Assembly (NCBI GenBank): GCA_934129945.1
Contig: CAKOXC010000002.1
Location: 53,747 to 117,746 of the forward strand
Direction of reading: 5' to 3'
Source: an uncultured Bacilli bacterium
Lineage (GTDB): Bacteria > Bacillota_I > Bacilli_A > RF39 > UBA660
DNA length: 64,000 bases
Both the position numbers and the translations under genes were made by a program. Under the pieces are notes generated by a model. It was given only the letters and a program-made list of their open reading frames with translations, was not told the origin of the DNA and made no database searches. Below are positions 3,727-37,821 of the stretch, one piece after another (position 1 is the first letter of the stretch; every line of letters begins with the position of its first letter).

Positions 3727-5496
3727 CTACTTTTTATTTATATTATTTAAATATTCTTTTAAATTATCAGCAATATTTTTAGGAATTATTTTTTCTAATT
3801 CTTCAGTCGGAGCCTCTTTCATCTTAGCAACACTACCAAATTTTTTAATAAGTTCTTTCTTTCTTTTTTCGCCAATTCCATCTATATTATCTAAAACTGA
3901 TGAAATACTACCTTTACTTCTTATTTGACGGTGATAATTTATTGTAAATCTATGAACTTCATCTTGCATTCTAGTTAAATAATGGAAAACATTAGATGTT
4001 TTTACAAGTGGTATTTCTTCTAAAGTATCTCCATCAATTAAATCATTAGTCATATGCTTATCATTTTTTCTTAATCCACAAATTTTAATATCAAGATTTA
4101 ACATTTGCATTATTTCTTTACAAGCATTAATTTGATTAATTCCACCATCAACGATAATTAAATCAGGCTTTTCTAAATGTTCTAAAAGCATACGATAATA
4201 TCTTCTATAAAGTACTTCTTTCATGGTATTATAATCATCATTTTTATCAATACTTATTTTAAATTTACGATATTCTTTTTTTGCAGGAACGCCATTTTTA
4301 AAGACAACCATTGCACTTACAGAAAAATCACCAAATAAGTTAGAGTTATCAAATAAATCAATCCTATTTAAATGTTTGAGATTTAATAATTCTCTTAATT
4401 CTTCATTTGCTTTTTCAGTTCTTTCTTCGTCTTTTTCAATTAAAGTCATTTCATTATCTAAATTTATTTTTGCATTCATAAATGCCATATCAAGAAGTTC
4501 TTTCTTTTTACCTTTTAATGGTGTTGTAAATGTCGTATTTAACATGTTAGAAAGTAATTCTTTATCACATAATTCGTCTAAAAAGATTTCTTTAGGTATT
4601 TCATGACGTGAATAAAACTTTATTAAATACTCCTCTATTTCTTCTTTTAATTCACCTACAATTGGAAAAATGTCATTATGCCCTCCAACTAATTTACCAT
4701 TGCGGATAAAAAAGATTTGAGCACTAACATAGCCATTATTTAAATAGTAACCAAATATATCTCTATTAATTAAGTCATGTAATTCTACTTTTTGTTTTGT
4801 TAGAACAATTTCAACATAATCTAAATCTTTTTTTAATTCTAAGGCCATTTCAAAATTTAAATTTTCACTACATTCTTCAATTTTTTTTAAAAGTCTATTC
4901 TTTAATACATTTTCATTTCCATTTAGAAAAGATAATATTTCTTTTTCCATTTCTTCTAATTTACTATGGTCATAGTTTTTAGTGCAATAACCTAAACATT
5001 GTCCAATGTGATAATATAAGCATACTTCTTTTGGCATTGAATCACATTTTTTTAATGGATATATTCTATTTAATAAATTAACTATTTTTCGAGCAGCATA
5101 AGCATTGGGATACGGACCAAATAATTTTTTATTTTCACTTTTCTTAATATTAGTATATCTTGAAACTTTTAATTTTGGATAAGGATTTTTAATGTATTCT
5201 ATATAAGGATATGTTTTATCATCTTTAAGTAAAATATTATATTTTGGATCATACTTTTTAATTAGATTAATTTCTATAATAAAAGCTTCTAGTTCACTAC
5301 TGGCAACTATATAAGTAAAATCAGCTATTTCACTTATCATTTTAGCTGTTTTGCCAGTATGGGTTCCACGAAAATATGAAGATAATCTTTTCTTTAAGTC
5401 TTTTGCTTTACCCACATAAATTATAACACCATCAGAATTCTTCATTTGATAAGATCCTGGTTTATGAGGAACTAAACTAAGTTTTTCTTTAAACAT
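3727..5496 (-). CDS. uvrC: excinuclease ABC subunit C
   Basis: 589 aa. GIY-YIG N-terminus (SYQMKNSDGVIIYVGKAKDLKKRLSSY), UvrC family length and C-terminal HhH region. Confidence 0.9.
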   Translation of the reverse strand: MFKEKLSLVPHKPGSYQMKNSDGVIIYVGKAKDLKKRLSSYFRGTHTGKTAKMISEIADFTYIVASSELEAFIIEINLIKKYDPKYNILLKDDKTYPYIEYIKNPYPKLKVSRYTNIKKSENKKLFGPYPNAYAARKIVNLLNRIYPLKKCDSMPKEVCLYYHIGQCLGYCTKNYDHSKLEEMEKEILSFLNGNENVLKNRLLKKIEECSENLNFEMALELKKDLDYVEIVLTKQKVELHDLINRDIFGYYLNNGYVSAQIFFIRNGKLVGGHNDIFPIVGELKEEIEEYLIKFYSRHEIPKEIFLDELCDKELLSNMLNTTFTTPLKGKKKELLDMAFMNAKINLDNEMTLIEKDEERTEKANEELRELLNLKHLNRIDLFDNSNLFGDFSVSAMVVFKNGVPAKKEYRKFKISIDKNDDYNTMKEVLYRRYYRMLLEHLEKPDLIIVDGGINQINACKEIMQMLNLDIKICGLRKNDKHMTNDLIDGDTLEEIPLVKTSNVFHYLTRMQDEVHRFTINYHRQIRSKGSISSVLDNIDGIGEKRKKELIKKFGSVAKMKEAPTEELEKIIPKNIADNLKEYLNNINKK

Positions 5497-22795: not shown

Positions 22796-24694
22796 TTACT
22801 TTGTAAGAACTAGGCGAAGTCCAATGCCACCATCGGCACCACCAGTGTGATGAATGAAGGAGAACTGACCCGCAAGTACACCATTGCCGTAACGGCCGCC
22901 TCGATGGAACCAAGAGTACGAAGAATTGGCAAAGTAAGAATTGTCAGCATACCAACCATTGTGTGGGCGATTATTACTATCTGCATCTTGATAATAATAA
23001 AATGGTCCCATCTCTCCTGTTGCATCTCCTAAGATTCTCTTACTATATGTTGTCCAATCACTATTTGCATCATATTCATCATAATATTTAGAATTGTATG
23101 ATTTTAATGATGAACTATCAAATCCTGAATCCTTATACGTTTCACTTCTAAGTGATGCCATATACTCCAAAGCTCCACCGCTCATATCATATATTCCTGT
23201 TATATTTCCTGTTGTACTTGCTTTATATCCTGTACTTGTATTATATGGTAAAGTTACACTTGCATCTGTTCCATAGGTTCCGGGGACTTTGGTTTGATCA
23301 GCACTATCTGTTGCTGCATATCCTGTTATGTAATTTGAATTATTATTTATTCTAACTTCAGTATTTATTCCATATTTTGAATGAGATAGATATGCTACTG
23401 CTCCCCATTCTGTATTTTTCATCATATGTGAGTCATTATCTCTTTTATAATTATATGCTGTTTCAAACATTGTTTTTACATTTATATTTCTTAATGATGT
23501 TTGATTTGGTTTTACTGTTATATTTGCTGTACTTCCGGTTGTTTCAAATTTTGCTACCCATAATCCATTTGTATTCATTGAAATAAATGCAGGTGAAGTC
23601 ATATAATCTCCAACCTTACAATTACCACTTGCTCCACTTGTCATTGGTGTTGTACATTCTCCATTATTTGAATCATTTGTATTTGTTGTGCCAAATTTTA
23701 TTTGAATTTCTTTTGCATTACTTGTCGTTGGCTTACTAGATGTATACCCATCAGTTTCACCTAAATTAAATATTTGATATGAATATTTTGGTATCCATAC
23801 AAAGTATGATTCAATATTATCTTCTGGTATTGTATCCCCATTATTATATATTTTAGAACTATCTGCTAAAATAACTGCATTGGCCCATTTCTTATCTTCA
23901 TATTTATACCACTCTATATTAGTATCTGCCTTTGTTACTGTTCCATCATCAGCTATTGCTACTGGTATTAAATTATCACTTAATACTGGATCTGTTCCAT
24001 TAAGTAATGCTTCTTTGTATTCAGCTTTAACGCTAGAATCAGTACTACTTGTTACTATTACTTTACCAGTAAATGATTTACCCATAGTTGATAAATCTTC
24101 AACACTTTCATCCATCCAAACATATAGTTTATATGTCTTTGACTGTCCTTTTGATACTACAGAACTATTATCACTATTCATAGTAGCTTTTGTTAGACTT
24201 CCACTAGTTAATATATATGAATTTAATATATTGTAAGTATTATTATTTTCATCAGTATAAGTATAATTATTATATTCATCATATTTTTTTGTACTTCCTA
24301 TTATCTTAGGACCTACTGTGTTGCCTTTTTCGTCAACCAGTTTGTAATCAAGATAATTATCTAAATCACTACTTCCAGTAGTGTTTAATGTTACATTATA
24401 ATACATATCAATTGAACAATTATTAGTTATTGTAAAAGTATATGGGGTATTTTTCATTGCATCAGTTTCGCTCATCGGATAAGTATTTGTTAAATTAATT
24501 GGATTTTCATCAGTTAATTCAAAAGAAAAACATCCACTTTTTATTTTATTAGTTGATTTTTGAGCATAATTTTTTTGCCAATATGCATAAGATACACCTG
24601 TAAATATTACCATAATAAATATAAATGCTAAAACTCCGATTAATGTTATTGGTAATATATTATCTTTATTAAATTTTAAATTTATTTTTTTCAT
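22796..24694 (-). CDS. Ser/Thr/Asn-rich membrane-anchored surface protein with C-terminal FGE-sulfatase (SUMF1/DUF323)-like domain
   Basis: N-terminal TM (ILPITLIGVLAFIFIMVIF). C-terminal motifs GIYDMSGGALEYMAS, HRGGRYGNGVLAGQF, GIGLRLVL resemble the FGE fold (DMxGNVWEW, RGGSW, GFRC). Start is one of three consecutive ATGs at 24694-24700 after SD AGAAGG. The 3' ~250 nt are strikingly GC-rich. Confidence 0.5.
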   Translation of the reverse strand: MKKINLKFNKDNILPITLIGVLAFIFIMVIFTGVSYAYWQKNYAQKSTNKIKSGCFSFELTDENPINLTNTYPMSETDAMKNTPYTFTITNNCSIDMYYNVTLNTTGSSDLDNYLDYKLVDEKGNTVGPKIIGSTKKYDEYNNYTYTDENNNTYNILNSYILTSGSLTKATMNSDNSSVVSKGQSKTYKLYVWMDESVEDLSTMGKSFTGKVIVTSSTDSSVKAEYKEALLNGTDPVLSDNLIPVAIADDGTVTKADTNIEWYKYEDKKWANAVILADSSKIYNNGDTIPEDNIESYFVWIPKYSYQIFNLGETDGYTSSKPTTSNAKEIQIKFGTTNTNDSNNGECTTPMTSGASGNCKVGDYMTSPAFISMNTNGLWVAKFETTGSTANITVKPNQTSLRNINVKTMFETAYNYKRDNDSHMMKNTEWGAVAYLSHSKYGINTEVRINNNSNYITGYAATDSADQTKVPGTYGTDASVTLPYNTSTGYKASTTGNITGIYDMSGGALEYMASLRSETYKDSGFDSSSLKSYNSKYYDEYDANSDWTTYSKRILGDATGEMGPFYYYQDADSNNRPHNGWYADNSYFANSSYSWFHRGGRYGNGVLAGQFSFIHHTGGADGGIGLRLVLTK

Positions 24695-24799
24695 CATCAT
24701 ACCTTCTACTCTATAAATTATTATACTAAATAAGGAATAGTAATTCAACTGAAAAACTATTTTAAATTACTAGAAATTGTTATATTTTCACCATTAAAT

Positions 24800-24846
24800 A
24801 CCGTATAATGGTATTTGCTGGTGAAAATCAATAAAAAACTCTATCA
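24800..24846. repeat. near-perfect 19-bp inverted repeat TTTTCACCA(TT)AAATACC-tataa-GGTATTT(GC)TGGTGAAAA
   Basis: Read directly; no adjacent T-run, so more operator-like than terminator-like. Confidence 0.5.
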
Positions 24847-24878
24847 GTTAAGATAAAGTTTTCAGGCATTTTCAACCG

Positions 24879-24972
24879 AGATTACTTATAACTCGCACCA
24901 CTCGGAAGCGACTAACATTTCGCGATTGGAATCACTTATAACCCGCACCATCCATAAGCGGCTAACATGTTC
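24879..24972 (+). repeat. two tandem ~44-nt relatively GC-rich direct repeats (about 85% identical) separated by 7 nt
   Basis: R1 GATTACTTATAACTCGCACCACTCGGAAGCGACTAACATTTCG; R2 AATCACTTATAACCCGCACCATCCATAAGCGGCTAACATGTTCG. The internal 4-bp stem TCGC/GCGA versus CCGC/GCGG shows a compensatory change. Confidence 0.5.
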
Positions 24973-24978
24973 GAATAA

Positions 24979-25980
24979 TTATTTTTCTATGTAATCAATT
25001 CCTAAATGTTCATAAGCTTTTTTCTCTGCAACTCTACCACGTAGTGTTCTTTTAATAAAGCCTTCTTGTAATAAATATGGTTCTATAACATCTTCAATAG
25101 TAGTCTGTTCTTCCCCAATTGATGTAGCAATAGTAGCAACACCTACTGGACCGCCATTAAATTTATTAATTAAAGCAAGTAAATACTCTTTATCTATGGC
25201 ATCCAGTCCTAAATCATCAACCTTTAGTCTTTTTAGAGCATCCATAGTTATTTCTTTAGTTATAATACTACCATTTTCTACTAAAGCAAAATCTCTAACT
25301 CTTTTAAATAATCTATTAGCTATTCTAGGAGTTTTTCTACTTCTTTTAGCAAGTTCAATTACAGCGTCTTCTTCAATTGGCATTCCAAGTACTCGACTAG
25401 TTCTTTTAATAATATTTGCAAGTTCTTCTGTAGAATAGTAATTTAGTTTTGAAACAATACCAAAACGATCTCTTAAAGGTGAAGATATATCACCAGAACG
25501 AGTTGTTGCCCCAACTAGTGTAAATGGTGGTAAATCTATTTTTAAACTTCTACTTTTTCCATCTGTTCCAATTATTATATCAAGTTCAAAATCTTCCATT
25601 GCTGGATATAATATTTCTTCGATATATCTAGGCATTCTATGAATTTCGTCTATGAAAAGCACATCTCCTGGTTCAAGATTAGATAATATTGCTGCCAAAT
25701 CTCCTGGTTTTTCTATTGATGGACCACTTGCGGTTTTTAGATTACTCCCAAGTTCATTAGCAATAATATGAGCTAGTGTTGTTTTACCTAAACCAGGAGG
25801 GCCATAAAGTAAAACATGATCTAATACTTCATCTCTCATTTTACATGCTTTAATAAAAACTCTTATATTTTCTTTAACTTCACTTTGTCCAACATATTCA
25901 TCTAAATATTCAGGTCTTATATTGTTTTCAAAATTATCAGTTGTTATTTCTTCTTGATCTAATATTCTTTCTTCCATCAT
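24979..25980 (-). CDS. ruvB: Holliday junction branch migration ATPase RuvB
   Basis: 333 aa, Walker [10 protein letters not shown], RuvB family. Confidence 0.9.
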
Positions 25981-37744: not shown

Positions 37745-37821
37745 GTCCTCATAGCTCAGCTGGATAGAGCATACGCCTTCTAAGCGTACGGTCGCAAGTT
37801 CGAATCTTGCTGGGGACACCA
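37745..37821 (+). tRNA. tRNA-Arg (anticodon TCT)
   Basis: Cloverleaf read by hand. Acceptor stem GTCCTCA/TGGGGAC with one G-U pair, anticodon loop CTTCTAA, T-loop GTTCGAATC, encoded CCA. Confidence 0.85.

Follow-up and report, generated by a model that had tools for sequence, protein, structure and literature searches.

A structured spacer downstream of ruvB in an uncultured Bacilli genome, read as probable remnants of CptIN and AbiE modules

We analysed a stretch of 64,000 nucleotides (hereafter the window) from an uncultured Bacilli bacterium, and within it the non-coding spacer that follows ruvB. The ruvB gene (24979..25980, minus strand) is a 333-aa open reading frame that ends with a TAA stop codon at 24981-24979; the identical RuvB protein on public contigs is matched by the Pfam families RuvB_N, AAA_lid_4 and WHD_RuvB. 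The next gene (22796..24700, minus strand) encodes a protein of 632-634 aa in the list of reading frames, and of 632 aa on the public contigs, with a hydrophobic segment at its N-terminus and no assigned function; neither Pfam, NCBIfam nor PADLOC gives a significant match, including any for the label 'surface protein' under which the gene was originally described. Counted from the ruvB stop (24979-24981) to the ATG at 24700, the spacer is 278 nt long, and not 230 nt as first reported. All of its features lie on the minus strand, as do ruvB and the flanking genes; reading on from the ruvB stop there are 10 nt, two repeat units, an AT-rich hairpin with a U-run, a palindrome, and the promoter-like sequence TTGAAT-17-TATAAT.

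The GC content rises to 0.42 at 24850-24949, where the repeats lie, compared with 0.16–0.25 in the flanking non-coding DNA, and the earlier remark that the repeats are richer in GC than their surroundings is borne out. The promoter-like site (24720..24748, minus strand) stands ahead of the 632-aa gene and outside both of the relics described below; it is kept in all of the aligned alleles, and is the only sigma-70-like match found by a promoter scan of 24600-25100. Gene order beyond the 632-aa gene differs in one contig with an identical RuvB: in L004 (6267-7002), compared with L001, a SirA-domain gene rather than gyrB follows it, which points to a rearrangement or a different synteny.

The two copies of the direct repeat, at 24881-24918 and 24931-24968, are 38 nt long, share 82% identity, and are spaced 50 nt from start to start. 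A degenerate pattern search of the 64 kb returned exactly these two copies (0 expected by chance), and an nhmmer profile of the repeat matches them with E-values of 7e-18 (unit A) and 1e-14 (unit B) and nothing else in the window. They had been described as two GC-rich direct repeats of 44 nt; the copies are real, and the true unit is the whole 50-nt period rather than 44 nt plus a spacer, the supposed inter-copy spacer containing the 3′ strand of a second helix. Each unit follows the formula AAUGUUAG-[S1]-UU-[S2]-UGGU-[S1']-GUUAUAAAUGAU-[S2']-tail. In unit A (24920..24970, minus strand), stem 1 (S1/S1') is formed by CCGC at 24961-24958 with GCGG at 24946-24943, stem 2 (S2/S2') by UGGA at 24954-24951 with UCCA at 24930-24927, and the A-rich loop is GUUAUAAGUGAU. 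In unit B (24872..24919, minus strand), the corresponding strands are UCGC at 24911-24908 with GCGA at 24896-24893, and CCGAG at 24905-24901 with CUCGG at 24880-24876, and the tail is UUGA. Every stem pair is kept in both units, so that both stems are fully paired. The unit ends are putative, and were placed by analogy with the GA|AA processing of Eubacterium rectale CptI (PMC4627078). Unit B is followed by the start of a partial third repeat (24864..24871, minus strand; AAAUGCCU, with AAAUGUUU as the family consensus), and GAAAATGTTTGAAAAC is conserved after the last unit in most of the related arrays.

Folding of single units by minimum free energy is no better than that of shuffled sequences (z of -0.5 and +0.3), as expected for a pseudoknot, and covariation was used instead. 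The sample comprises 47 distinct units, of which intact loci supplied 45. In these, 91.7% of the cells in the proposed stems are paired, versus 21–54% when the 3′ partners are slid by 1–3 columns; 6/9 pairs change on both sides, and the four core pairs of stem 2 are paired in every unit, each with two to three pair types. The compensatory change between the copies that drew attention to them, TCGC..GCGA to CCGC..GCGG, is real: it corresponds to pair 12-30, the first pair of stem 1, which is C-G in 25 units, U-A in 22 and unpaired in 0. The covariation supports a predicted H-type pseudoknot like that of the crystallised E. rectale CptI.

A search of Rfam, one of the checks suggested originally, recovered no relevant RNA family: at gathering thresholds the window yields only a tRNA, and a permissive scan of the region gives matches at chance level (E>2). 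The tRNA is a tRNA-Arg (TCT) at 37745-37821 on the plus strand, and is the sole match to Rfam or by ARAGORN in the window. Readings of the repeats as a riboswitch or tandem aptamer, and as an integron attC-like or other recombination site, were considered and dropped.

Between the repeats and the palindrome lies an AT-rich intrinsic terminator (24833..24863, minus strand), absent from the original prediction, with a 12-bp stem, a 6-nt loop and a U-run. The hairpin (24863-24834) with its T-run has a folding energy of -11.7 kcal/mol (z of -5.9); a consensus terminator scan missed it because that scan demands at least three G-C pairs. The palindrome itself has two 19-nt arms, at 24784-24802 and 24810-24828, which are 7 nt apart and complementary at 17/19 positions, and no T-run follows it on either strand. 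A near-perfect inverted repeat without a T-run had been reported here, and that description holds; a role as an intrinsic terminator is rejected for the lack of a T-run.

CptIN modules have the order promoter, two ~50-nt cptI RNA repeats, terminator, and the gene for the CptN endoribonuclease. In type III systems the toxin cuts the repeat transcript into single units, each of which, folded as an H-type pseudoknot, binds to the toxin and inhibits it, and the terminator sets the ratio of antitoxin to toxin. Repeats, terminator and toxin together are the defining type III architecture (PMC3401426).

The link of the spacer repeats to this architecture comes from related alleles. One contig, L002, carries after ruvB a truncated 114-aa reading frame that matches NCBIfam NF047359 (CptIN) with an E-value of 5e-23 and the CptN sequence of PDB 4RMO with 6e-6; Pfam and PADLOC gave nothing for it, and its identity as CptN comes from the NCBIfam and PDB sequence searches. 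A protein search with this fragment returned 1730 homologues, typically of 155–156 aa, the closest intact one being protein P0002 of a second locus, L011. L011 is 97.6% identical to the window over rplS-ruvAB (the 632-aa gene diverges faster between strains, with 91.5% identity to L011), and its CptN, which is 155 aa long and encoded between ruvB and the same 632-aa gene, scores 159.7 bits against NF047359, for which the cutoff is 90. The order in the L011 spacer is a promoter with a small leader hairpin, the two units, the same terminator as in the window, a ribosome-binding site with an intact cptN, and the palindrome. Unit A of the window differs from its counterpart in L011 by one base, and unit B by none. 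This array and cptN recur in a third locus, L013, in an unrelated context (rpoD-trmK ... PBP) and without the palindrome; the palindrome is absent after cptN there, and we rejected it as a cptN terminator.

Compared with L011, the window is without ~104 nt of promoter and leader, and without the sequence that begins at the terminator tail, stops just short of the palindrome and includes all of cptN; two deletions would have removed the promoter/leader and the whole of cptN. What remains is two still-foldable cptI units and the terminator, beginning 10 nt after the ruvB stop. Promoter scans gave no promoter-like site upstream of the window repeats, and tblastn gave no CptN-like coding sequence in the 64-kb window. 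Without the cptI promoter and cptN, the window holds an orphan array in the ruvB 3′ UTR; since a CptN gene is absent from the window and present downstream of the repeats in L011 and in 45 arrays of other genomes, we regard it as an orphan relic of a CptIN member rather than a complete system. Judged from these sequence comparisons, the GC-rich tandem repeats are what is left of the RNA antitoxin of a CptIN type III system that has lost its toxin gene. The terminator that separates cptI from cptN in intact loci is the only terminator after ruvB in the window; a hairpin with a GTTTTCTTTT tail, of varying stem sequence, stands at the equivalent position in other arrays. The old cptI terminator would now serve ruvAB, and the cptI units would be transcribed only as the ruvB 3′ UTR. 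Unit B is identical to that of an intact allele and both units can pair, and for that reason we do not conclude that RNA function has been lost. The original proposal of a repeated RNA hairpin (an sRNA or 3′ UTR element) was right in so far as the repeats form a structured RNA, which consists of pseudoknot units of a type III antitoxin and not of a simple hairpin, sRNA or novel 3′ UTR element; the alternative that they are a pair of operator sites fails.

Published CptIN arrays have ~2–3.4 tandem direct repeats of ~40–48 nt (Blower 2012, Table 2). The window has two full units and the beginning of another, with a Rho-independent terminator after them whose position is conserved in the family, and so resembles E. 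rectale CptIN (PDB 4RMO; Blower 2012, Rao 2015), with about two tandem repeats and then such a terminator; the period of 50 nt is 2 nt beyond the 2012 range. As in E. rectale, the repeats in the sister alleles and at the 45 loci lie directly upstream of a CptN-family toxin gene, whose product passes the NCBIfam equivalog cutoff. E. rectale CptI is a 45-nt H-type pseudoknot in which L1 is short and L2 is long and rich in A, and one unit alone suffices for antitoxicity (PMC4627078, PMC5086642). Alignment of the window units to this 45-nt unit reproduces its topology, which is S1, short L1, S2, and an A-rich L2 with UAUAAAUG, and its ...UUGA|AA unit junction; beyond L2 and the tail the primary sequences have little in common. 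Unlike E. rectale CptIN, the two units differ in a systematic way, A and B having different second stems, and the promoter and toxin gene of the window are deleted, leaving an orphan in the ruvB 3′ UTR. A promoter upstream of the cptI repeats is preferred, and is not a strict feature of published systems (Blower 2012).

The spacer was compared among public contigs with identical RuvB, and three alleles are present. The window type, found in ~13 contigs, is the commonest. Six contigs have an abiE type, in which a single hybrid unit and the terminator are followed by the palindrome, running up to the ATG of a 196-aa abiEi, and then by a 286-aa abiEii. The truncated-toxin type is that of L002 alone, with one hybrid unit, the terminator and the 114-aa truncated cptN, and no palindrome. 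The single units of L002 and of L005, a contig of the abiE type, are A/B hybrids that cross over at different places: in both, the 5′ strand of stem 2 comes from A and faces a 3′ strand from B, and in L005 CCGC also faces GCGA. These pairings are mismatched, and the pseudoknots are therefore broken, at stem 2 or at stems 1 and 2. The abiE-type allele is also present in L037 (CADBMU010000008.1, the GTDB species-representative of uncultured Erysipelotrichaceae bacterium RUG14121), with an AbiEi that is 100% identical.

Type IV AbiE modules consist of abiEi-abiEii driven by a promoter that lies within an inverted repeat with arms of ~20 nt. In L005-L010 and L096, the same palindrome as in the window ends at the ATG of abiEi. 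The L005 proteins match PADLOC with E-values of 3e-67 (AbiEi) and 9e-102 (AbiEii), and AbiEii is also matched by Pfam PF08843. Twenty abiEi homologues were fetched (from metagenomes, with 43–99% identity and varied upstream contexts), and 17 loci were analysed: 16 with the gene start, plus L005. An inverted repeat with arms of 17–21 nt ends at the ATG, or no more than a few nt from it, in 14–15 of these 17; the repeats are centred on TATAAT or a close variant, with TTGATT at the left edge and the Shine-Dalgarno sequence GAGGTG in the right arm. The arms co-vary among the loci (CACCTCT/AGAGGTG, CACCACT/AGTGGTG, CACCTCA/TGAGGTG), and the most distant homologues have different palindromes in the same place.

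In the window, the corresponding segment (24784..24831, minus strand) comprises a -35 sequence TTGATT (24831-24826) and the 19-nt arms. The central -10 TATAAT has become TTATAC/TATACG, the right arm is without the Shine-Dalgarno sequence, and the ATG has become ATA; the promoter scan called no promoter at the palindrome. Immediately beyond it, 27 nt (24757..24783, minus strand) join abiEi codons 1-4, with the ATG changed to ATA, to the last codons of abiEii, and read ATA ACA ATT TCT AGT AAT TTA AAA TAG. In a direct comparison with L005, the 5′ end corresponds to ATGATAATTTCTAAT and the 3′ end to ACTAATAATTTAAAATAA, and the junction lies at CTAAT, which is common to both ends, so that the deletion junctions can be read from the alignment. 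The aligned ends mark the fused stub, in our reading, as a deletion scar and not an insertion target: a deletion between the short CTAAT repeats would have taken the abiE operon and left the palindrome and the 27-nt fusion, and the -10 box, Shine-Dalgarno sequence and start codon would have mutated afterwards. The same scar is present in L011, and L002 is without the palindrome too. No AbiEi or AbiEii match was found in the 64-kb window.

From this likeness to the intact loci, the palindrome is seen to be the leftover promoter/operator of a deleted abiEi-abiEii operon. AbiEi of Streptococcus agalactiae represses its own operon through two 23-bp inverted repeats that lie 3 bp apart in the promoter, and binding with autorepression is known for this AbiEi and for Mycobacterium tuberculosis Rv2827c (PMC7319586). 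The window palindrome resembles these operators, in which two inverted repeats of ~20 nt, 3–7 bp apart, span the -35/-10 region directly upstream of abiEi, and in other strains it stands at this locus ahead of an intact abiEi-abiEii; by homology and position, we infer that it was an AbiEi autorepressor operator. The likeness has limits: the arm sequence is unrelated to that of S. agalactiae, and, unlike the operators to which AbiEi is known to bind, this is a putative operator, known here from sequence, that retains the palindrome and the -35 but has a deleted operon reduced to the fused stub, and a mutated -10, Shine-Dalgarno and start codon. The early suggestion of an operator for the downstream gene was correct as to the type of element, which served the deleted abiEi-abiEii operon and not that gene. 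Both elements, which it was proposed to look for in other genomes, are conserved elsewhere, each of them beside its own toxin-antitoxin genes. The relic in L011 (3007-3049, compared with 4104-4146 in L005) is a perfect 19-bp inverted repeat, and most functional abiE operators are imperfect; its right arm has lost the Shine-Dalgarno sequence and is now fully complementary to the left arm, an outcome that hairpin-templated correction could explain, as could selection for a hairpin after cptN.

A motif scan with GTTAGNCGCTTNNNNNTGGTGCGNGTTATAA of one genome for each of 185,579 species returned 79 stretches, nearly all of them from MAGs of uncultured gut Bacilli, 'Tenericutes', Erysipelotrichaceae or Clostridium sp. 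CAG. Together with non-redundant earlier loci and the window, these give 86 arrays. Forty-five are intact, with a full-length cptN on the same strand 75–150 nt downstream; 22, including the window, are orphans followed by unrelated genes; 11 have a partial toxin gene, some of them being cut by the end of a contig; and the remaining 8 lie at contig ends and are not assessable. By a standard -35/-10 search within 100 nt upstream (a stricter pattern flagged only 13/45 intact arrays), a promoter-like site precedes 42/43 intact arrays and 13/20 orphan arrays in other species, and is absent from the window. Units are fully paired in 87/88 cases in intact arrays, versus 28/36 in orphan arrays (Fisher p=2e-4); the simplest reading is that selection would have relaxed after loss of the toxin. 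With a promoter kept in 13 of the 20 orphan arrays, some solo arrays may nonetheless be maintained. A dispersed REP- or MITE-like repeat is rejected: there are only two tandem copies in the 64 kb, and at other loci the motif goes with cptN or with what remains of it. The motif was not found in viral contigs, and an origin as a phage mimic thus gains no support.

The A and B types of unit recur throughout the family. Type A has CCGC/GCGG with UGGA/UCCA, type B has UCGC/GCGA with a variable stem 2, and the A-then-B order is held across dozens of species (L011 2326-2425, window 24872-24970, and most of L017-L095). Arrays of the form A-A (L028) or B-B (L089) are present at a few intact loci, and heterotypy is thus no requirement. 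A complex of the composition CptN2:A:B would be asymmetric.

Taken together, these comparisons make it very probable that both features of the spacer are non-coding scars of deleted CptIN and AbiE modules, left by ordinary gene decay at a defence hotspot, with no new regulator involved, and most likely neither scar retains its original function in this strain. The spacer downstream of ruvB would be a variable hotspot that once held two toxin-antitoxin or abortive-infection modules in tandem. The direction of change, deletion rather than gain of cassettes, is suggested by the coding stubs and hybrid repeats and not by a dated phylogeny. Our view of the genome extends to 64 kb, and a cptN or abiEi elsewhere in it may still use these elements.

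The persistence of foldable units invites a different account of the repeats, in which the array is maintained as a functional solo antitoxin, expressed by read-through from ruvAB and neutralising CptN of a second locus, of mobile elements or of phages, in the manner of anti-addiction or immunity. Both window units keep every stem pair, the window type is the commonest allele among contigs with identical RuvB, orphans are frequent (22/86), and in some genomes a second array lies on the same contig (L028, L079). Like pseudo-ToxI of phage PhiTE and other solo type III repeats, the array consists of antitoxin-type repeats without an adjacent toxin gene, and pseudo-ToxI shows that solo type III repeats can work (PMC5086642); unlike that phage-borne element, which is selected to defeat ToxN, the array is chromosomal, has no viral-contig match, and decays in sister alleles. 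The same species has alleles collapsed to hybrids with a broken pseudoknot, the window array has lost its own promoter, no cptN lies in the 64 kb, orphan units pair less well than those of intact arrays, and CptI antitoxins are highly toxin-specific (PMC5086642). We consider this account unlikely for the window. The wider proposal that orphan cptI arrays in reduced-genome gut Bacilli are retained as solo RNA antitoxins against an incoming CptN or a second chromosomal cptIN is likewise improbable, although many orphans do keep a promoter, both pseudoknots and the terminator; if it were true, the window array would have been captured into the ruvAB transcript, constitutively expressed and lending its terminator. 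That the repeats instead control the downstream gene, as a novel riboswitch-like tandem RNA acting in cis or as direct repeats bound by a protein, would suit units that are GC-rich, structured, tandem, conserved and unmatched by any Rfam family; it is already contradicted by the association with cptN, which follows the repeats at 45 other loci in unrelated genomic contexts, and a terminator lies between the repeats and the downstream gene, the genes after orphan arrays are unrelated to each other, and the pseudoknot matches CptI. We give it scarcely any credence.

The palindrome, in turn, might still function in this strain, as a residual promoter/operator or as an RNA hairpin (an insulator or stabiliser) acting on the 632-aa gene, a reading close to the operator first suggested for that gene. 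Its hairpin is very stable (-20.2 kcal/mol, z of -7.0), it lies ~60 nt upstream of the promoter of the 632-aa gene, and the relic in L011 has remained a perfect palindrome despite the loss of abiE. It is absent, however, from L002, in which the 632-aa gene and its promoter are intact; there is no second copy in the window, no promoter is called and the -10 and Shine-Dalgarno are mutated, and across loci the element is tied to abiEi, in the 14–15 of 17 cases noted above, and not to the 632-aa gene. Continued function is improbable, and we retain the reading of both elements as scars of lost modules.

A conspicuous GC-rich, structured spacer is in this way explained by the decay of two known modules, which spares a hunt for a supposed new sRNA or operator. 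Within one species, cptIN and abiE come and go between strains at the hotspot downstream of ruvB. More widely, toxin-less cptI arrays are common (22 orphan and 45 intact among the 86), and surveys of type III systems that start from the toxin miss them. The comparison describes a CptIN subfamily of uncultured gut Bacilli whose repeats are 50 nt long and whose A and B units are heterotypic, and provides strong natural covariation support for the CptI pseudoknot.

Several individual arrays have further peculiarities. L083 (351-548) has four units, which are diverged and lie ahead of a truncated cptN. L028 and L079 each have one intact and one degenerate cptIN array, ~0.8–1.5 kb apart on one contig. 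In L019 (~3740-3890) and L023 (~3900-4000), a single cptI unit is separated from the terminator, or from what comes after it, by a long stretch of short TTATCAC(TT) repeats, which resembles a microsatellite expansion in a degenerating cptIN locus.
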